Assembly (NCBI GenBank): GCA_000830275.1
Contig: CP010424.1
Location: forward strand, 1,209,429-1,241,428
Reading direction: 5' to 3'
Source: an archaeon GW2011_AR10
GTDB lineage: Archaea > Iainarchaeota > Iainarchaeia > Iainarchaeales > GW2011-AR10
Length of the DNA: 32,000 nt
Numbering within the stretch: position 1 is the first letter of the stretch; each line of letters begins with the position of its first letter. Position numbers and translations under genes: made by a program. Of the stretch, positions 4,332-32,000 are shown piece by piece. The notes under the pieces were generated by a model. That model had not been told where the DNA came from. It saw nothing but the letters and a program-made list of their open reading frames with translations, and ran no database searches.

Positions 4332-4355
4332 CTGTTCAAGCGTTCCTGAGATCGA

Positions 4356-4468
4356 ATAATTCCACCAAACAACCATTTAAAAATGGCGGAATTATAACTC
4401 TCAAAAACCACCGATTGAAGCAGGCAGGATGCCTATATTGCTTCCATTAGAATCAAGTGGTTTTTGAG
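4356..4468 (+). repeat. Structured intergenic repeat, copy A (two adjacent long hairpins)
   Basis: Stem 1 is ATAATTCC(4356-4363)/GGAATTAT(4388-4395), enclosing the mini-hairpin CCATTT-AA-AAATGG (4373-4386). Stem 2 is CTCAAAAACCAC(4400-4411)/GTGGTTTTTGAG(4457-4468), with inner pairs GAAGCA/TGCTTC and GGCA/TGCC. Same architecture as 11546-11715. Confidence 0.7.
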
Positions 4469-4502
4469 AAGCTTTTTAAAAGAATTAACACATCATTCTA
4501 TA

Positions 4503-4612: not shown

Positions 4613-5449
4613 ATGGGCAGAGTAATAGCCTTAGTGTCAGGGAAAGGCGGGGTTGGAAAAACCACGATTGCAGCCGAATTAGGGATTGCTCTAGCGAAAA
4701 GAAACCTCAAGGTGTGCTTGATTGATGCGGATGTTGCAATGGCCAACTTGAGTCTGCTGCTTAACATGCAGAGTTCTCCTTTAACACTCCATGATGTCCT
4801 GCTTGGGGAATCAGCAATAAATGATGCCATATATGATGGCCCGGAAGGAGTGAAACTTATTCCAAGTGGTTTAAGCCTTGAGAATTACAGGAGAGTTGAC
4901 GCTGAACGCCTGCAGTCAGTGGTTGAATCAATTTCCGGGCAGTTTGACTTCATTATCCTTGACTGCCCTGCAGGAATAGAGAAAGGAGTCATGGCTGCAA
5001 TTGCCGCAGCAAATGAAGTGCTTCTCATAACAATGCCGAACTCTCCTTCAATTGCGGATGTATTGAAGGCAAAGATTACTGCGCAGAGGCTTGGCACAAG
5101 AGTTATTGGTGTAGTTGTAAATTTCATTCGCGGAGAAAAAGGTGAAATAAACCAGGACGACATAATGAAGCTACTGGAGCTGCCTGTTTACGGCATGATT
5201 CCATATGACCCAGAGGTAAGGAAGTCCTTCATGCAGGAAAAGGTTGCACCTCTTATGGTTAGAAAGCCTACAAGTCCTGCAGCAGTTGCAGTGCAGAGAA
5301 CTGCTGCAAAAATTGCCGGAATTCCTGTTTCATTCGCTGAGCCAGCGAGAAAAAGAGGTTTTCTTGCAAACTTTTTTAATAAGTTGCTGGGCATATTTAG
5401 AAAGAAGAAGGTTACAAACCACATCAAAGAGGAAACTGAGAAGAAATGA
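4613..5449 (+). CDS. minD: MinD/ParA-family P-loop ATPase
   Basis: Deviant Walker A SGKGGVGKTT, plus IDADV and ILDCPAG motifs. ATG 4613 (MGRVIALVSGKGG) is preferred over the track start TTG 4595. C-terminal amphipathic basic helix FLANFFNKLLGIFRKKK. Confidence 0.88.
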   Translation: MGRVIALVSGKGGVGKTTIAAELGIALAKRNLKVCLIDADVAMANLSLLLNMQSSPLTLHDVLLGESAINDAIYDGPEGVKLIPSGLSLENYRRVDAERLQSVVESISGQFDFIILDCPAGIEKGVMAAIAAANEVLLITMPNSPSIADVLKAKITAQRLGTRVIGVVVNFIRGEKGEINQDDIMKLLELPVYGMIPYDPEVRKSFMQEKVAPLMVRKPTSPAAVAVQRTAAKIAGIPVSFAEPARKRGFLANFFNKLLGIFRKKKVTNHIKEETEKK

Positions 5450-6308: not shown

Positions 6309-6410
6309 GGGCTCGTGGTCTAGTGGCATGACGGATCCTTGGCGATGAATGCAAAATTAATGCTTTCACTTGAATGGATCAAATTGGGGGTTCGATTCCC
6401 CCCGAGTCCA
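6309..6410 (+). tRNA. tRNA-Ala(GGC) with an intron of about 30 nt in the anticodon loop
   Basis: Acceptor GGGCTCG/CGAGTCC with the G3:U70 alanine identity pair. D-arm GTCT-AGTGGCA-TGAC, anticodon stem GATCC/GGATC, variable loop AAATT, T-arm GGGGG-TTCGATT-CCCCC, discriminator A. The 5' side of the loop reads TTGGCG (anticodon GGC), then ~30 extra nt. Exact splice sites were not resolved by eye. Confidence 0.8.
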
Positions 6411-9639: not shown

Positions 9640-9817
9640 TTTCCTAAAAGTTGCTTTAAAATTTTTTCCCACCAAGAAATCATTCAACCCAAAAGATACC
9701 TCGGCTTTTAAGTCGCGGTTATTGGCCTCGGTATCTTTTCCGTTGACGGGTTCATGACGTCCATTAAATGTTGGGATACCCCTGCCTTTAGGCATGGGAG
9801 GACGTCATTTGCTTGAA

Positions 9818-9843
9818 GGGCCTATGGTCTACCGGTATGATTC
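9818..9843 (+). pseudogene. tRNA 5' fragment (acceptor 5' strand plus intact D-arm), partner of the 3' fragment at 11723-11747
   Basis: GGGCCTA-TG-GTCT-ACCGGTA-TGAT-T. It shares GGGCCTnTGGTCTA with tRNA-Val at 11425. Its acceptor strand is perfectly complementary to TAGGCCC at 11740-11746. No anticodon or T arm follows. Confidence 0.6.
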
Positions 9844-10148: not shown

Positions 10149-10297
10149 GCTTTATTCTTCTATTTCTTTTTAGCTTGATTTTCTTTCCTCTGCTCTTTAT
10201 TCTTGATGCATTTGGATTTAATGAAGAAGCATATGAGATAGCGAAATATCTAGTAGCTTTTTTCTTAGGAATGCTTGTTTGGGAGTTGGTGTTATGA
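10145..10297 (+). CDS. Small two-TM membrane protein (50 aa)
   Basis: GTG 10145 has GGAGGAG 8 nt upstream. Two hydrophobic segments, SFILLFLFSLIFFPLLFIL and YLVAFFLGMLVWELVL. Its stop overlaps the endonuclease ATG (ATGA). Confidence 0.4.
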   Translation: MSFILLFLFSLIFFPLLFILDAFGFNEEAYEIAKYLVAFFLGMLVWELVL

Positions 10298-11439
10298 ATC
10301 CCGCACCGGAAATGAACCCTCAAATTCGATATAAATCTAAAAAACTAATTTCTTTTATGAAAAGCCTTTCTGGTTATACAATAGAAGAAAAAAGAGTATT
10401 GCTTGAAGATCCAAAACTATTTTTTAGAGCAATTAAAGAATCTCCAAAATACCTTTCTTGGAATTCTCTTGTCGAAGATGTTAGTTGTGCAAATACAACT
10501 TTGAAAAAGTATAGGCGAGGAGAGTTAACTATCCGAGGAGATATTTTCCTTAAACTTTTGAGTTATTTAAGTAAAAATCAAAAGCAAAGACTAATTTCCA
10601 AGATAAATTTAGTGAATTCTAATTGGGGTGCAATTAAGGGCGGTAAGCGAGGTTTTGCAGTAATAAAAGAAAAGTATGGTGAAAACTATTTGGAGATGCT
10701 AAGAGTCAAAGGTCAGCGAGCAAGTTTGAATAGCCCATTGTTCATTACCAAACCAATGGAAATTACTATCCCTTCAAGCATTACTATGGAAATTGCAGAG
10801 CTATTTGGAGCCTATCTTGGGGATGGAACTTTAACAAAATATTTTATGAGAATTGCAGGGGATAAGCGACTGGATAAGTATTATTTCATCTATCTTTCAG
10901 GATTAATCAAAAAGAATTTTGGATTGAGTTCAACCATAAAAGAGATAAGCCTTTCTACAAATCAACTTTGCTTGGAAATAAGATCAAAAAGATTTGTGGA
11001 TTATTTCAGACATGTTTTTCAACTGAAAATAGGGAATAAAATTAGAAATTCATCAAAAATTCCTGAATTTATTATAGAAGACAAGGAATTAGCAAAAGCG
11101 TGTTTGAGAGGGTTGATGGATACTGACGGATCTTTTTCAAGGAGGTCAACATATATGTGTTTAGCTTTTACGTCCCATAGCCCTATACTGCTAGGCCAAG
11201 TTCATAATCTTGGTTTAAAATTTGGGTATTTTTCCTATAAATTTAAAGATCAAGTAGGTTCTAATTCTTCTGGCAGAATAAAGAAGTATTTCTCAGAAGT
11301 TGGCAGTTCAAATTTGAGGCATATAGTCCGTTACCATGAACATCTTAAAAATAACCGTTTTTTGTATTCTGAGGAAACATTAAAATATTTTCCTGAATAT
11401 CAAAATCTTATGCTGCCATATTATGGGCCTGTGGTCTAG
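10294..11439 (+). CDS. Double-motif LAGLIDADG homing endonuclease with an N-terminal HTH-like extension
   Basis: Motifs are LFGAYLGDGT (from ~10801) and LRGLMDTDGS (from ~11104), about 100 aa apart. The coding region is AT-rich. ATG 10294 is preferred over the track start TTG 10279. The TAG stop (11437-11439) lies inside the D-arm of tRNA-Val. Confidence 0.85.
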   Translation: MNPAPEMNPQIRYKSKKLISFMKSLSGYTIEEKRVLLEDPKLFFRAIKESPKYLSWNSLVEDVSCANTTLKKYRRGELTIRGDIFLKLLSYLSKNQKQRLISKINLVNSNWGAIKGGKRGFAVIKEKYGENYLEMLRVKGQRASLNSPLFITKPMEITIPSSITMEIAELFGAYLGDGTLTKYFMRIAGDKRLDKYYFIYLSGLIKKNFGLSSTIKEISLSTNQLCLEIRSKRFVDYFRHVFQLKIGNKIRNSSKIPEFIIEDKELAKACLRGLMDTDGSFSRRSTYMCLAFTSHSPILLGQVHNLGLKFGYFSYKFKDQVGSNSSGRIKKYFSEVGSSNLRHIVRYHEHLKNNRFLYSEETLKYFPEYQNLMLPYYGPVV

Positions 11440-11535
11440 TGGTTAGAGAGCTTAGGAAAAATTAATCTTGGCTCTCCCGCAAATGACGTTACCTTGACAT
11501 GGTAAAGATCGGCAGTTCGATTCTGCCCAGGCCCA
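11425..11535 (+). tRNA. tRNA-Val(GAC) with a 38-nt intron in the D-loop (position 20/21)
   Basis: After removing 11445-11482 the 73-nt product folds as GGGCCTG TG GTCT AGTGGTTA TGAC G TTACC TTGACAT GGTAA AGATC GGCAG TTCGATT CTGCC CAGGCCC A. A bulge-helix-bulge surrounds the insert. Confidence 0.85.
11445..11482 (+). other. Predicted BHB-type tRNA intron
   Basis: The 4-bp helix GTGG(11439-11442)/CCGC(11477-11480) is flanked by the 3-nt bulges TTA (11443-11445) and AAA (11481-11483) on opposite strands. The intron helix is GAGAGC(11446-11451)/GCTCTC(11471-11476). Confidence 0.75.
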
Positions 11536-11545
11536 CTTTAAATCA

Positions 11546-11715
11546 GGTAATTCCACCGTTTTCAAACGGTAGTCAGGTAAAACTTTGACAAATCAAGTGA
11601 TTGCTCCATATTTCATTTTGTCAAAGTTTTAGTGGAATTACTACTGTCAAGAACCACTTGCTTGTTTTGGAATTTTATAAACATGCCACTGACTTTAGTC
11701 GGTGGTTCTTGACAA
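11546..11715 (+). repeat. Structured intergenic repeat, copy B (longest copy)
   Basis: Stem 1 is GTAATTCCAC(11546-11555)/GTGGAATTAC(11632-11641). It encloses CCGTTT-TC-AAACGG and a 14-bp stem AAAACTTTGACAAA/TTTGTCAAAGTTTT. Stem 2 is TGTCAAGAACCAC(11645-11657)/GTGGTTCTTGACA(11701-11713). Confidence 0.75.
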
Positions 11716-11722
11716 CAATTTA

Positions 11723-11747
11723 GGCGGTTCGACTCCGCCTAGGCCCA
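11723..11747 (+). pseudogene. tRNA 3' fragment (T-arm, acceptor 3' strand, discriminator)
   Basis: GGCGG-TTCGACT-CCGCC-TAGGCCC-A. No matching 5' strand lies within 1.8 kb except GGGCCTA at 9818. It differs from the tRNA-Val 3' end at 4 of 25 positions; two of these are the paired 52:62 positions and one is position 66, whose partner (position 7) changes correspondingly in the 5' fragment. Confidence 0.65.
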
Positions 11748-11810
11748 CTAATTTAGCTAGGAAAACAGTATGGCCTGCATTTAAAGTTTTTTTTGTAAGC
11801 TATTTATTTT

Positions 11811-13898: not shown

Positions 13899-13969
13899 CA
13901 GCCTTTTAGGAAAAGGCTGGCGAAAAAAAGCCTACGGCAACAGCCTTTTAAAAAAAGGCTGGCGAAAAA
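13899..13969 (+). repeat. Tandem duplicated 9-bp-stem hairpin downstream of rpl15e
   Basis: CAGCCTTTT-AGG-AAAAGGCTG (13899-13919) and CAGCCTTTT-AAA-AAAAGGCTG (13941-13961), each followed by GCGAAAAA. Possible terminator duplication. Confidence 0.6.
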
Positions 13970-22420: not shown

Positions 22421-22532
22421 ACAGTTCGCTCCGTTCAACGAAAAGAAGGCGACAGAAACCTGCACCCAAATTAACCAACATGCGCCTTTATTCACCAAAA
22501 ATCAATGATTTAATTGCAAACCCGGTGCAATA

Positions 22533-22868
22533 CTATTCCAAGTGCTTGAGCTTTAAAAAGCAGTTCTCGCAAATGAACCGTTCCTTGAAGTCAATCCCGT
22601 TTTCATCAAGGTTTGCGCAAAGAATGCAGCGCCTTCCACTGCTTGTGTTTTTTTTGTTTGCCCACTCAAACAATAAATCCCACGTAACCCATCTTGGAAT
22701 GACGACTTCCTGCATCACTGTTTTATCGTTCTGCTGGATTCTCTTGATGTGGCTTGGCAGCATTGTCTTTTCGAGGTTCTGCATCCACCGCACCCTTTCG
22801 AAAGCGCCTTTCCGGATGAATTCGTTCATTGTCTCGTTAAAAACAGCCATTAAATCACGCAATTCCAC
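22533..22868 (-). CDS. Hypothetical protein with a C-terminal CxxC..CxxC zinc ribbon (111 aa, or 105 aa from ATG 22850)
   Basis: The minus-frame protein has a normal composition and ends in CILCANLDENGIDFKERFICENC. The overlapping plus-strand ORF 22480-22944 looks random. Confidence 0.55.
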   Translation of the reverse strand: MELRDLMAVFNETMNEFIRKGAFERVRWMQNLEKTMLPSHIKRIQQNDKTVMQEVVIPRWVTWDLLFEWANKKNTSSGRRCILCANLDENGIDFKERFICENCFLKLKHLE

Positions 22869-22930
22869 TGTTTTAAAACCCCAGAAGCAACATAACCTGC
22901 CACTGACTCTAGTAATTGGTTCTTTACACC
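22859..22930 (+). repeat. Structured intergenic repeat, copy X (internally deleted)
   Basis: GCAATTCCACTGTTTTAAAACC matches the copy B 5' end (20 of 26). ATAACCTGCCACTGACTCTAGTAATTGGTTCTTTACACC matches the copy B 3' end (32 of 40). About 105 nt of copy B are missing between them. Confidence 0.65.
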
Positions 22931-23018
22931 AGCTAAACAGATAAGAGACAAGAAGTTAATTAAAGTTTCGTTTCAATAAAAATTTAATTCTTTTTTTCCA
23001 GTAGTTTTAAGGTGGCTA

Positions 23019-29513: not shown

Positions 29514-32000
29514 TTGGACTTACTCGAGTTAGCCTTGATTGTTGCAGTAATTGTGCTTGTTCTAGTGAATGTTTTCATTTACTTTAGGAAGCGTGCCAAC
29601 TCTCCTTTAAACAGTTTCAGGGCTTCTATGTATTTGTTTTCCAGCAAGCCATTCCTTGCCCTCGTTTCAGTTGTTTTTGTTGTTGTTTTGTTTTTTGTTT
29701 TTCCTTTGCAGGAAACAGCCTCGTTTTTTGGTTCCAATGCTGTTGGTTTTGCTTCTTTTTCCGCAAATTTTTTTGATTCGTTTGTTTCCAAGGAAACCAT
29801 TGAAGCTGAACAGCCTTCTGATGAAACAATTGATGAGCAGCCAGCGTTTGAGCCGGAAGAAAAGGTTTTGCCTGAATTCGAGCCTTCAAATCCTTCCAAT
29901 TCATCCACTTTAACTGCACCAACTGCTCCTTCAACTCCATCTCCTTCTTCTTCCAGCAATTCTGCTGAAGAAGAATATTATTTGGGCAAACCCTGCTCCG
30001 AATTAAATTATTACCAGTTAAAACAAGCGCACAAGTTCAGGAAATGCCTTTCTGCGTCCTCCGATTCAGGCGGAAGTGGAGGCGGTGGCGGTTCTGGTGG
30101 GGGAAGCAGTGGCGGCAACAGTTTTTCTTCTAACCCTTCAGAAGAAGTGGTTCCTGTAATTCCTTTGCAGGAAGGGTTTCCTTTGCAGCTTGATTTGGGG
30201 AATGATGATTTTCTTAAGGTTAAAGCGAATAATGATTTTAATGTGGAATTGTTGGCGCCTAGTGATTCAGGTGTTTCTTTGGGGGACATTGATGGGGATG
30301 GCTATTTGGAAATTGTTTTGGCTTCAGATTATAGTCATCTTTATGCAATTAATCATGATGGAACAATGGTTTCCGGTTGGCCTGTAACTTTGGATTATTA
30401 TTTCGGAAATTTCTTGCAGTTGACTCCTGCTTTGGCTGATATTGAGGGGGATAGCAGGCTTGAGATAATTTCCGGTTCTACCACAGATTTAGTATATGCT
30501 TTTCATGATGATGGTTCTTTGGTGGAAGGCTGGCCTGTAAGTAGTGATAGTGTTGTATCCTGGGTGTCTGCTGCAATTGGTGATTTAGATGCTGATGGTG
30601 GTCTTGAAGTTTTAAGCGGTTCTTGGGGCGGCAGTCCTACTTATGTTTCTGCATTTCATGGAGATGGTTCGAATGTTGATGGGTGGCCAATTTATCTTGG
30701 TTCTGGTTATGTCCCAAAGCCTGCCTTGGCTGATTTAGACGGTGATGGAGAACTTGAAGTAATAACCAGCGGGGATGGTTTACGTGTATTTAACGCTGAT
30801 GGTTCTGTTGTTGAAGGGTTTCCAATTAATGTTCCGGTAAGTGGATCCCCAGTTGTTGTTGGTGATTTAGACAATGATGGTGATTTGGAAATAGTTGCTG
30901 GGGGATACCAAAATTTGTTTGCATTTCACCATAATGGAACTCCAGTAAGTGGCTGGCCAGTAGAAGTGCCAGGATATAATACCCCGATTTTAGCTGATTT
31001 GGATGGAGATAAACAGTTGGAGGTAATACCGTGGGTTGAGTTTTGGGAAAATGATAGTGTTAAAGAACATAGGCTATATGCTTTTCACGCCGATGGCTCT
31101 GCTGTTGCTGGTTGGCCTATTTCGTTAGGAGAAAATATTTATGTTAGCACTCCGATTGTTGGGGATATTGACAGTGACTCTCATCCTGAAGTGATTTTTG
31201 CTTCAAGTGATGGAAATGTTTATGCTTTTCATGGTGATGGCACTTTAGTTTCTGGTTTTCCTCTAAACTCTGCAGAAGGGGATTATTTTTACAGTAGTGT
31301 TCCAGCTATTGGTGACTTGGATTTGGATGGCGACATTGAGCTTGTTGCCGCTTCTCGTGGGCGTAGAACTGTTTATGTGTGGGATTTGCCTGGAGCATAC
31401 AATCCTGATTATATTGAGTGGGGCAAAGCCCATCACGATTTGTGGAACACTGGCTTGTATGGTTTCACGCCCGGAGATGTTTTGACTCCAAGCTCTTCCC
31501 TTAGAATAACCGATTTCAGCGAGAGTGTTTTGCTTTCTAATGAGCTTTTGGGAGTGAATTTTGAGGTCAAGAGCGGCAACAGTTTTAATGATGTGTCTTC
31601 AGTGCAGTACAGGTTCAGTGAGTCTGATTCCTGGCGTACTGCTTCTGTGAGGGGCGATGGTCACTATTTTCTTTCCTTGAATGCTCCTTCGCAGCCTGGC
31701 AACTACACTTTAACGATTAGAGCCAAAGTTAATGGGAAGTGGGTTTCAGACAGCCTTGAAATACAAGTCGTTGGAATTGATTTATCCATTGAATCAGTGA
31801 AGGCAATCCAAGTGGTTGAAGACGTTGACTTGGTGGCAGGCAAGGACACTGTTGTGAGGGTTACAGTGGTTAATAGCTCTGGAATTGGAACGAATGTTAA
31901 AGTAAAAATCAATTATAATGGTTGGGTGGAGGAAAAAACCGTTTTCGTGGAAGACAGAAAAACAGTTAATTTCTTTCCCCCAAATGATAAAACGAGGTGA
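29514..32000 (+). CDS. Large membrane-anchored surface protein with a FG-GAP-type beta-propeller and a C-terminal CARDB/Ig-like region
   Basis: TTG start after AAGGTGGGG. Two N-terminal TM helices, P/S/T and G/S linkers, then eight DxDxDG-type calcium-loop repeats (DIDGDGYLEIV, DLDADGGLEV, DLDGDGELEV, DLDNDGDLEIV..), each followed by AFHxDGSxVxGWP. The propeller closes with HHDLWNTG. The TGA stop falls exactly at 31998-32000. Confidence 0.85.
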   Translation: MDLLELALIVAVIVLVLVNVFIYFRKRANSPLNSFRASMYLFSSKPFLALVSVVFVVVLFFVFPLQETASFFGSNAVGFASFSANFFDSFVSKETIEAEQPSDETIDEQPAFEPEEKVLPEFEPSNPSNSSTLTAPTAPSTPSPSSSSNSAEEEYYLGKPCSELNYYQLKQAHKFRKCLSASSDSGGSGGGGGSGGGSSGGNSFSSNPSEEVVPVIPLQEGFPLQLDLGNDDFLKVKANNDFNVELLAPSDSGVSLGDIDGDGYLEIVLASDYSHLYAINHDGTMVSGWPVTLDYYFGNFLQLTPALADIEGDSRLEIISGSTTDLVYAFHDDGSLVEGWPVSSDSVVSWVSAAIGDLDADGGLEVLSGSWGGSPTYVSAFHGDGSNVDGWPIYLGSGYVPKPALADLDGDGELEVITSGDGLRVFNADGSVVEGFPINVPVSGSPVVVGDLDNDGDLEIVAGGYQNLFAFHHNGTPVSGWPVEVPGYNTPILADLDGDKQLEVIPWVEFWENDSVKEHRLYAFHADGSAVAGWPISLGENIYVSTPIVGDIDSDSHPEVIFASSDGNVYAFHGDGTLVSGFPLNSAEGDYFYSSVPAIGDLDLDGDIELVAASRGRRTVYVWDLPGAYNPDYIEWGKAHHDLWNTGLYGFTPGDVLTPSSSLRITDFSESVLLSNELLGVNFEVKSGNSFNDVSSVQYRFSESDSWRTASVRGDGHYFLSLNAPSQPGNYTLTIRAKVNGKWVSDSLEIQVVGIDLSIESVKAIQVVEDVDLVAGKDTVVRVTVVNSSGIGTNVKVKINYNGWVEEKTVFVEDRKTVNFFPPNDKTR

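Follow-up and report, generated by a model that had tools for sequence, protein, structure and literature searches.

Insertion sequences of the IS200/IS605 group carry subterminal hairpins about 10 nt from their ends, generate no target-site duplication and have a short motif on the left side only. REPINs, hairpin-forming doublets of repetitive extragenic palindromic (REP) sequences, have been reported as undetected in archaea (bioRxiv 10.1101/2021.07.10.451892). In the current study, three hairpin-forming elements, designated A, B and X, were analysed in a 32,000-nt stretch of the genome of archaeon GW2011_AR10 (contig CP010424.1, positions 1,209,429 to 1,241,428; hereafter the window). They are worn copies of a large family of palindromic repeats of about 170 bases, which is found in the Woesearchaeota and Nanoarchaeota of the DPANN archaea and is apparently undescribed so far. 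The three are probably old copies of a mobile DNA element that forms hairpins, is non-autonomous and has spread through these lineages, and among described systems the element would seem to work most like REPINs and the palindromic miniature elements derived from IS200/IS605. The window itself is archaeal, and its sequence is also present in Rifle groundwater metagenomes and in NCBI assembly GCA_013332025.1.

The copies and their parts are as follows, the limits of A, B and X having been set by family criteria.

4352-4469, + strand: copy A, a decayed family member, recognized by its fold and by partial profile matches
4356-4363 / 4388-4395, + strand: module 1 stem of A, ATAATTCC / GGAATTAT, with hairpin CCATTT/AAATGG
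4400-4411 / 4457-4468, + strand: module 2 stem of A (stem 2), CTCAAAAACCAC / GTGGTTTTTGAG
11537-11542, + strand: TTTAAA hexamer directly 5' of B, the usual flank of the family and outside the element
11543-11714, + strand: copy B, a full-length but diverged family member, recognized by profile, covariance model and fold
11547-11641, + strand: module 1 of B, with closing stem GTAATTCCAC (11547-11556) / GTGGAATTAC (11632-11641)
11556-11561 / 11564-11569, + strand: inner hairpin of B module 1, CCGTTT/AAACGG
11578-11592 / 11617-11631, + strand: extra hairpin of B module 1, a perfect stem of 15 bp, lineage-specific
11646-11713, + strand: module 2 of B, with stem GTCAAGAACCAC (11646-11657) / GTGGTTCTTGAC (11702-11713)
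11686-11694 / 11697-11705, + strand: inner hairpin of B module 2, CCACTGACT / AGTCGGTGG, abutting the 3' arm
22855-22928, + strand: copy X, an internal-deletion derivative of a B-like copy, recognized by similarity to B
Termini of X, + strand: both kept, the 5' end being TCACGCAATTCCACTGTTTTAAAAC, with ATTAAA before it, and the 3' end CTGCCACTGACTCTAGTAATTGGTTCTTTACA

All three sequences were found where the initial annotation of the window had placed them. The next + strand genes, which it had likewise noted, are minD, hicB and a gene for a metallo-beta-lactamase (MBL)-fold protein, at 127-145, 96 and 89 nt, respectively. Judged from the family, B begins with TCAGG... at 11543 and ends with ...TTGACA at 11714 (start TCAGGTAATTCC, end GGTGGTTCTTGACA), and A has lost the inner 3' hairpin and terminates in TTGAGA, not TTGACA. 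Comparison of A and B upholds the compensatory changes reported for stem 2, where both substitutions are matched on the opposite arm, and the covariation of the small hairpin (CCATTT/AAATGG in A versus CCGTTT/AAACGG in B). The extra stem of B is perfect as described, but one base pair longer than the 14 bp first given. In each copy the core AATTCCAC pairs with a downstream GTGGAATT; this pairing had been missed, and it makes the first domain a closed stem around a small hairpin. X had been described as B minus an internal stretch, and this description holds: about 30 nt of the 5' end of B (a similarity read from the sequences) and about 35 nt of the 3' end (82% identity over 38 nt, repeat family D18) are kept, and about 100 nt of the middle is gone.

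A and B fold more stably than their dinucleotide shuffles (z = -6.3 and z = -7.6, with none of 200 shuffles as good); X has no fold above shuffles (z = -0.7). The sequence TAATTCCACC, with at most one mismatch, occurs six times against 1.9 expected. A family profile built without the window copies finds B (E = 6.8e-14, 45 bits) and finds A in parts only (module 2, E = 5e-6; module 1, E = 2e-3). The covariance model, which had B in its training set, gives B 93 bits, and X is matched by neither the profile nor the covariance model. Of the three, B thus clearly belongs to the family, A belongs to it in decayed form, and the connection of X runs through B alone.

Gene callers disagree at X. One call is a 154-aa open reading frame (ORF) on the + strand (22480-22944) that runs over X and whose translation looks non-coding; the NCBI call is a 105-aa ORF on the - strand (22533-22868). 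X is probably intergenic, between divergent genes. The 154-aa ORFs upstream of A and X were considered as paralogues and rejected, having no similarity to each other, and the one over X looks spurious.

One genome per species was scanned for the pattern TCAANAACCAC-N(35-60)-GTGGTTNTTGA, which represents the stem 2 sequence and for which about 14 chance matches are expected by rough arithmetic under uniform base composition. At least 120 loci in species-representative genomes carry it. Among the loci listed, a whole-element profile supports 117 of 120, the other three being chance matches in bacteria; 107 copies are full-length (143-276 nt), and several metagenome-assembled genomes (MAGs) supply three to five loci each. 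The record titles of these loci are almost all Woesearchaeota, Nanoarchaeota/Nanoarchaeia, Pacearchaeota or, for third-party bins, 'uncultured Methanosarcinales', a label taken as it stands in the records. Copies are mostly single per 8 kb and of mixed orientation, and the same subfamilies recur in many species. The repeat, first noticed as three copies in 32 kb, is more than a local peculiarity.

The initial annotation recognized no named RNA family in the element, and Rfam holds no counterpart either. Only two tRNAs in the window pass the gathering threshold of any Rfam covariance model, and the best scores of canonical copies are 13-23 bits against thresholds of 43-136. Viral carriers were considered and discarded, as the element is absent from IMG/VR viral contigs, the scan of which gave three chance hairpins, none with a profile match. 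A search of the literature on Woesearchaeota miniature elements, on structured RNA in DPANN archaea and for the terminal 14-mers of the element found nothing specific.

The element forms a discrete unit, which measures 145-190 nt, or 54 nt in its mini versions. From 5' to 3' it comprises a start, TGTC(A/G)GAA or CATC(A/G)GAA, module 1, a linker centred on GCATGC, module 2 and an end, CA. The module 1 stem has the form TC(A/G)GAA-xxxx-CCAC / GTGG-xxxx-TTC(Y)GA, the middle differing by subfamily (GAATTCC, GAAATATACC, GAAATTTTCC, GAAACTTACC, GAAAACTGCTCG and others), and directly after its 5' arm stands a small hairpin, CCACC-n-GTC TnT GAC-n-GGTGG. Within the module 2 stem, TCAA(A/G)AACCAC / GTGGTT(T/C)TTGA, lie a variable hairpin, CATG and another small hairpin of this type, which abuts the 3' arm. 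These small hairpins, set back 10-15 nt from the 5' terminus and 9 nt from the 3' terminus, have loops of 3 nt (TnT) and feet of AATT or CATG, and both covary. The 3' boundary is sharp: after TTGA, C and A are conserved at 99% and 98%, and conservation falls to background at the very next base. At the other end it sets in about 10 nt before TC(A/G)GAA. The whole element has a rough two-fold symmetry about GCATGC, and the 5' unit TGTCAGAAttCCACC-hairpin-GGTGG resembles the reverse complement of the 3' end, TGTCAAGAACCACC-hairpin-GGTGG. A terminal symmetry of 5 bp, TGTCA/TGACA, is confined to TGTC-type copies, with none in CATC-type copies.

Nine pairs of copies are 90-98% identical, and their 400-nt flanks are without detectable similarity on both sides; six of the nine lie within a single MAG (among them L014/L098, L023/L123, L056/L089, L047/L103 and L038/L108). 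In locus L065, a 54-nt mini-element, TGTCAGAAATGCCTCGCATTTCTGAGCATGCTCAAAAACTTTTTATTTTTGACA, is nested between GAGTGTG and CTCAAGAACCAC of a full-length copy, and taking it out restores the family consensus with no duplicated bases. This exact nesting defines the mobile unit as TGTC...GACA. Head-to-tail junctions, in which TTGACA is followed directly by TGTC, are present in L067 and L116. Copies with a minimal module 1 (L012 and L066), together with the deletion copy X, make up the usual decay series. L066 and L115 had been candidates for partial copies consisting of module 1 only, but are in fact complete, with a diverged module 2.

The copies are intergenic, in either orientation and many per genome, and the hexamer at their left flank is usually TATA-like, TTTAAA being the commonest, followed by TTTATA, TTAATA and TTGAAA. 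In the 5' flank profile, T is enriched at -8/-7 and A from -5 to -3; the 3' flank is random. The preference for this hexamer is independent of the orientation of the neighbouring genes, and the hexamer is absent at nested and tandem copies. Since it differs even between near-identical copies (TTAATA versus TTTATA in the 97.7%-identical pair L014/L098), it represents a target preference and not a part of the element.

A miniature inverted-repeat transposable element (MITE) had been put forward in the initial annotation as an equally good explanation of the repeats. Mobility is upheld by the unrelated flanks, the nesting, the tandem copies and the sites without B described below, whereas a plain MITE is not. 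In the classical case, an internally deleted insertion sequence of the DDE type with terminal inverted repeats and target-site duplications, the resemblance is considerable: the element, like Correia, RUP, BOX and Sulfolobus SM elements, is non-autonomous, non-coding, multi-copy, AT-rich, intergenic, modular and of similar small size, deletion and nested variants occur in both, and TGTCA...TGACA is a 5-bp inverted repeat. A census of prokaryotic MITEs also lists one Woesearchaeal genome with 105 MITEs per Mb, among the densest in archaea, the elements being undescribed there (PMC11602168). However, the DDE-made terminal inverted repeats (about 10 bp or longer) and target-site duplications of classical MITEs were both tested for and not found here. 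No duplication of 2-6 bp is present at any of 98 boundary offsets in 92-95 copies, or at the nested insertion; CATC-type subfamilies lack even the 5-bp symmetry, the target motif is one-sided, and no DDE transposase bearing these ends was seen among neighbouring or enclosed genes. An origin as a classical MITE is thus very unlikely.

Target-site duplications and empty sites had both been named as checks on mobility, and for B the latter can be sought at a tRNA gene. The relevant features are given below.

11425-11535, + strand: tRNA-Val(GAC), with a 40-nt D-loop intron (Rfam tRNA, 55.4 bits; missed by ARAGORN)
11722-11762, + strand: displaced tRNA 3' fragment (T arm and acceptor 3' strand) with trailer, 8 nt after B

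B begins 7 nt after tRNA-Val(GAC). A 25-nt copy of the tRNA 5' end is found at 9818-9842 and matches positions 1-25 of an intron-less tRNA-Val. In the remnants, acceptor position 7 (A) and its 3' partner (T) match each other and not the intact gene. The 5' and 3' pieces are leftovers of an older tRNA-Val, which flank the LAGLIDADG/tRNA-Val unit. Only three relatives were retrieved from metagenomes with the PP-loop protein as query. In one of the loci compared, L133, the PP-loop protein is 64% identical, an intron-less tRNA-Val adjoins its gene, and B, hicB and the LAGLIDADG gene are absent. In L137 the LAGLIDADG protein is 60% identical and the order of LAGLIDADG gene, tRNA-Val(GAC) and tRNA 3' remnant is that of the window; the remnant (5205-5245) is orthologous and shares 34 of 41 bases with its counterpart, including 14 nt of trailer. 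The spacer between tRNA and remnant is 31 nt in L137 versus 187 nt in the window, where B makes up 172 of these. The remnant in L137 without the repeat implies that the duplication of the tRNA end predates B and that B is an insertion. As the relatives are distant, the exact insertion junction of B is inferred, not proven.

These sites also bear on a different origin for B only, as what is left of an element integrated at the 3' end of tRNA-Val, its attachment site. B is bracketed by that 3' end and by a 27-nt copy of it (11723-11749), 85% identical (repeat family D14) and with a compensatory T-stem change, as might be expected of such a relic. The L137 remnant, however, follows its tRNA with no repeat between, which makes the duplication older than B, and only three of 107 copies follow a tRNA, a number not beyond expectation; the proposal is highly improbable. 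Two further readings of the site were set aside. B is not a split-tRNA leader or a giant tRNA intron, as tRNA-Val is complete, B has no 5' acceptor strand and the remnant in L137 is B-less. A recently acquired cassette of LAGLIDADG gene, tRNA and B, suggested by the low GC content at 10-12 kb, is weakened by the conservation of the LAGLIDADG/tRNA-Val pair in relatives.

In the LAGLIDADG/tRNA-Val unit at 10294-11535, the 381-aa LAGLIDADG_3 ORF ends inside the 5' end of tRNA-Val(GAC). At six of six loci (the window, L137, L138, L140, L141 and L142), whose gene neighbourhoods otherwise differ, a homologous ORF of approximately 340-380 aa (39-100% identity) stops within the 5' end of a tRNA-Val(GAC) or immediately ahead of it. 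At least 234 proteins, nearly all from DPANN archaea, belong to the family, and the ORF resembles a homing-endonuclease gene that is free-standing and either moves together with tRNA-Val or homes beside it. The tRNA-Val next to the homologue in L142 (about 2535-2630) has a D-loop insert and falls below the Rfam gathering threshold. A second tRNA gene of the window, at 6309-6410, has a 33-nt intron in the anticodon loop and is found by Rfam but missed by ARAGORN.

The initial annotation had taken covariation of the stems as a sign of selection on an RNA, either a small RNA (sRNA) or a 5' leader. With more copies aligned, the covariation itself is strong. In a count of 32 pairs across 75 aligned copies, 95.5% of cells are paired versus 82.0% in column shuffles (none of 500 as high), and only 32-51% are paired when the 3' partner is slid by 1-3 columns. 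Cells changed on both sides number 342, against 98 in shuffles, and double changes affect nine of the ten module 1 pairs and all pairs of both small hairpins. In module 2, whose invariance was imposed by the search pattern, the single free position is complementary in 75 of 75 copies (A-T in 47, G-C in 28), and copies outside the pattern show further compensation, such as AACCAT/ATGGTT in L066.

Where an RNA fold is under selection, G-U pairs are acceptable and A-C pairs are not, and an excess of G·T would therefore be left on the transcribed strand. The stem mismatches have no such wobble bias (51 G·T versus 48 A·C in 2,360 aligned pair cells). The two strands fold with similar energies (53 versus 52 copies, mean difference -0.45 kcal/mol, p = 0.35), and the flank profile shows no oligo-T terminator 3' of the element. 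Co-oriented and opposed neighbouring genes number 59 and 41 downstream and 50 and 48 upstream, and the 150 nearest flanking ORFs are unrelated housekeeping genes with no enriched Pfam family. On these results, palindromic DNA is a better match than an RNA that is transcribed and functional in its own right; read-through transcripts containing the element are compatible with them. It is also possible that the stem arms are kept alike by hairpin-templated repair, without selection.

If the copies were structured sRNA genes or cis-acting 5' leaders, the TATA-like box would be their promoter and the two hairpin domains their functional fold. Such a role would account for the very strong covariation of the hairpins, the recurrence of subfamilies across species and the position of the hexamer, at a fixed spot 5' of most copies; about 20 copies, moreover, have their end no more than 30 nt from the start codon of a co-oriented gene, which must then be transcribed through the element. 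In archaeal promoters, however, the start site lies about 24 nt after the hexamer, which here is the loop of the first small hairpin, and the 5' arm of module 1 would remain outside the RNA. The variation of the hexamer in near-identical copies and its absence at nested and tandem ones are equally unfavourable, as are the lack of a wobble bias, of strand asymmetry in folding, of a terminator, of a consistent gene orientation, of a common neighbour function and of an Rfam match; triloop hairpins are also unusual for RNA. An RNA function is accordingly unlikely, and the step from covariation to selection on RNA is not supported.

Resemblance to RNAs in Rfam (H/ACA and C/D sRNAs, HEARO/omega-RNA-like RNAs and leaders) is limited to the two-hairpin shape and the covarying stems, with no family reaching a third of its gathering score. 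An H/ACA guide has a lower stem, a two-sided pocket, a K-turn upper stem and an ACA about 14-15 nt from the pocket. The element has an ACA directly after its long stem, but its inner hairpin abuts the 3' arm, so that there is no pseudouridylation pocket or 3' pocket strand, and the stem sequence, unlike that of guide RNAs, is conserved between copies. C/D boxes are also lacking, as is a wobble bias. Readings of the CUGA, ACA and GUC motifs as hammerhead, H/ACA or C/D features were rejected as misfits on inspection, with none in Rfam. The attC sites of integrons have R''/R' cores of the form RYYYAAC / GTTRRRY and form same-orientation arrays after each cassette. The arms GCTCAAGAACCAC / GTGGTTCTTGACA do not fit these cores, and the copies are mostly single and of mixed orientation; an attC identity was likewise rejected.

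With REPINs the element has more in common. Each is a short, palindromic, non-coding repeat found strictly outside genes in tens to hundreds of copies, and both consist of two similar hairpin units in inverted orientation with a spacer between them (here TGTCA(A)GAA-CCACC..GGTGG at each end). Neither generates a target-site duplication or is present in viral contigs, and each has several subfamilies per genome and persists throughout a whole lineage. The present element is larger (145-190 nt), however, and each of its halves is a long stem with a branch hairpin. It has a one-sided TATA-like flank, and the foot of its palindromes bears AATT or CATG and no GTAG or CGTC, the tetranucleotides by which PMC3733652 defines the REP tag. 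In addition, no REP-associated tyrosine transposase (RAYT) or other cognate HUH gene was found among neighbouring genes and flanks.

Bacterial REP sequences and interspersed mosaic elements (BIMEs) may also serve as a model for a punctuation element kept by the host, in which the copies would be binding sites of an abundant DNA- or RNA-binding protein, transcription stops or mRNA stabilizers, with slow and mostly vertical spread. This overlaps with the mobile-element explanation and differs from it on why copies persist. The presence of the same subfamilies in many species, with a near-invariant module 2 stem and CCACC/GGTGG motif, is in its favour, as are the strictly intergenic position in very compact genomes, the absence from IMG/VR contigs and the long vertical persistence of REPINs (bioRxiv 10.1101/2021.07.10.451892). 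Copies such as A and X nevertheless decay freely, and copies are absent at the corresponding sites of relatives; they lie at no favoured place with respect to gene ends, no protein was identified as a candidate binder, and the module 2 invariance is partly an artefact of the search, since AACCAT/ATGGTT variants exist. Maintenance by the host is therefore a doubtful explanation.

The subterminal hairpins and the lack of terminal inverted repeats and of a duplication are also shared with IS200/IS605 elements and with the derived palindrome-associated transposable elements (PATEs). A left-flank motif would be a further parallel, TTTAAA-like hexamers being enriched on the left and the right flank being random, but the motif of the present family is degenerate (TTTAWA-like) and not a fixed tetra- or pentanucleotide, and is absent at nested and tandem copies. 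No full-length parent was found, and there is no tnpB or omega-RNA context. As the defining enzyme or parent was sought for both systems and not found, the element is not filed under REPINs or IS200/IS605 derivatives.

In the mobile-element explanation, which we favour, an enzyme supplied in trans would copy the element by recognizing its folded subterminal hairpins. Only copies with complementary arms could then spread, and subfamilies would come to differ in the 'compensatory' manner observed. An HUH enzyme would fit the combination of subterminal hairpins, a one-sided target motif and the lack of a duplication, a link that draws on the biology of IS200/IS605 and REP/RAYT systems. The mechanism may thus be the single-strand 'peel and paste' of an HUH (Y1) transposase, as in IS200/IS605, its miniature derivatives and REPINs, with the CCACC..GGTGG hairpin plus TTCTTGACA as a candidate single-stranded substrate of the enzyme. 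The window copies would be relics, A having lost a hairpin and the terminal ACA, B having gained a hairpin and lost the linker, and X having lost its middle. If the copies now affect minD, hicB or the MBL-fold gene at all, this would be incidental, such as through a structured stretch in a read-through transcript.

The enzyme was sought among the genes around the copies. No RAYT (Y1 HUH) gene is present in 150 neighbouring ORFs or in about 0.95 Mb of flanks, although whole genomes were not searched; the genes between paired copies are ordinary (TIM, Pth, radical SAM and CutA), and no copy has an ORF between modules 1 and 2, as a full-length parent with tnpA/tnpB would. A tblastn search, with two IS200/IS608 transposase sequences as queries, gave one Y1 transposase, in L063 (3950-4570, - strand; Pfam Y1_Tnp, 5.5e-33), 2.3 kb from a copy. 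L063 is a Nanoarchaeota MAG that also carries the repeat, and the gene is solo, IS200-type and not flanked by the repeat. The Y1 enzyme family therefore exists in the lineage.

Several points weigh against a mobile element. The first is that no mobilizing enzyme was found, with no transposase family enriched among the 150 neighbouring ORFs, and the L063 transposase is flanked on its two sides by hairpins that resemble each other but differ from those of the family, GATGCGC..GCGCATAG and GATGCC..GGCATAG. The sites without B come from distant relatives (about 60-64% protein identity) and not from strain pairs. The recurrence of subfamilies across species is also consistent with functional elements that are paralogous and conserved. 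The near-equal numbers of G·T and A·C mismatches come from related sequences and decaying copies, and the TATA-like flank could drive transcription into the element.

A bolder and improbable extension is that this is the first REPIN-like system of archaea, consisting of vertically persisting hairpin doublets that are copied by a single-copy HUH-type or other structure-specific enzyme, home to the 3' side of TATA boxes and are transcribed from the host promoter. Copies would then come to lie between the TATA box and the start site, and the gene would stay expressed with a long structured leader; mobile DNA targeted to promoters would then be present in cellular genomes that rank among the smallest known. 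DPANN genomes are very small and gene-dense and are usually thought to be poor in repetitive or selfish DNA. This family may fill about a percent of such genomes, as estimated from three copies in the 32-kb window. The subterminal hairpins, the lack of a duplication and the TATA-like flank point to a mobilization mechanism undescribed in the phylum, and finding the enzyme would test for REPIN-type systems outside bacteria. In practical terms, the family is a ready marker for contig binning and strain typing; in these lineages it also gives rise to assembly breaks and to spurious 'structured RNA' calls. In annotation, the three elements of the window are best given as dispersed repeats, and not as sRNA genes or as leaders of minD, hicB and the MBL-fold gene.

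Three other regions of the window contain structured or repetitive sequence. Just upstream of the tRNA 5' remnant, about 180 nt without a convincing ORF (9640-9817) form two long hairpins (z = -2.8, none of 200 shuffles as stable) with no Rfam match. Directly 3' of the gene for ribosomal protein L15e, at 13899-13969, there are two tandem copies of a hairpin, CAGCCTTTT...AAAAGGCTG with GCGAAAAA after it; the copies are 93% identical and 42 nt apart, and may be terminators. Finally, an ORF that starts at 29514 and runs off the window contains, at 30270-31350, at least seven diverged repeats of about 45-50 codons with a period of 135-159 nt (repeat families D1, D3 and D4), each with a DxDGDG-like motif, which suggests a beta-propeller or FG-GAP-type surface protein.

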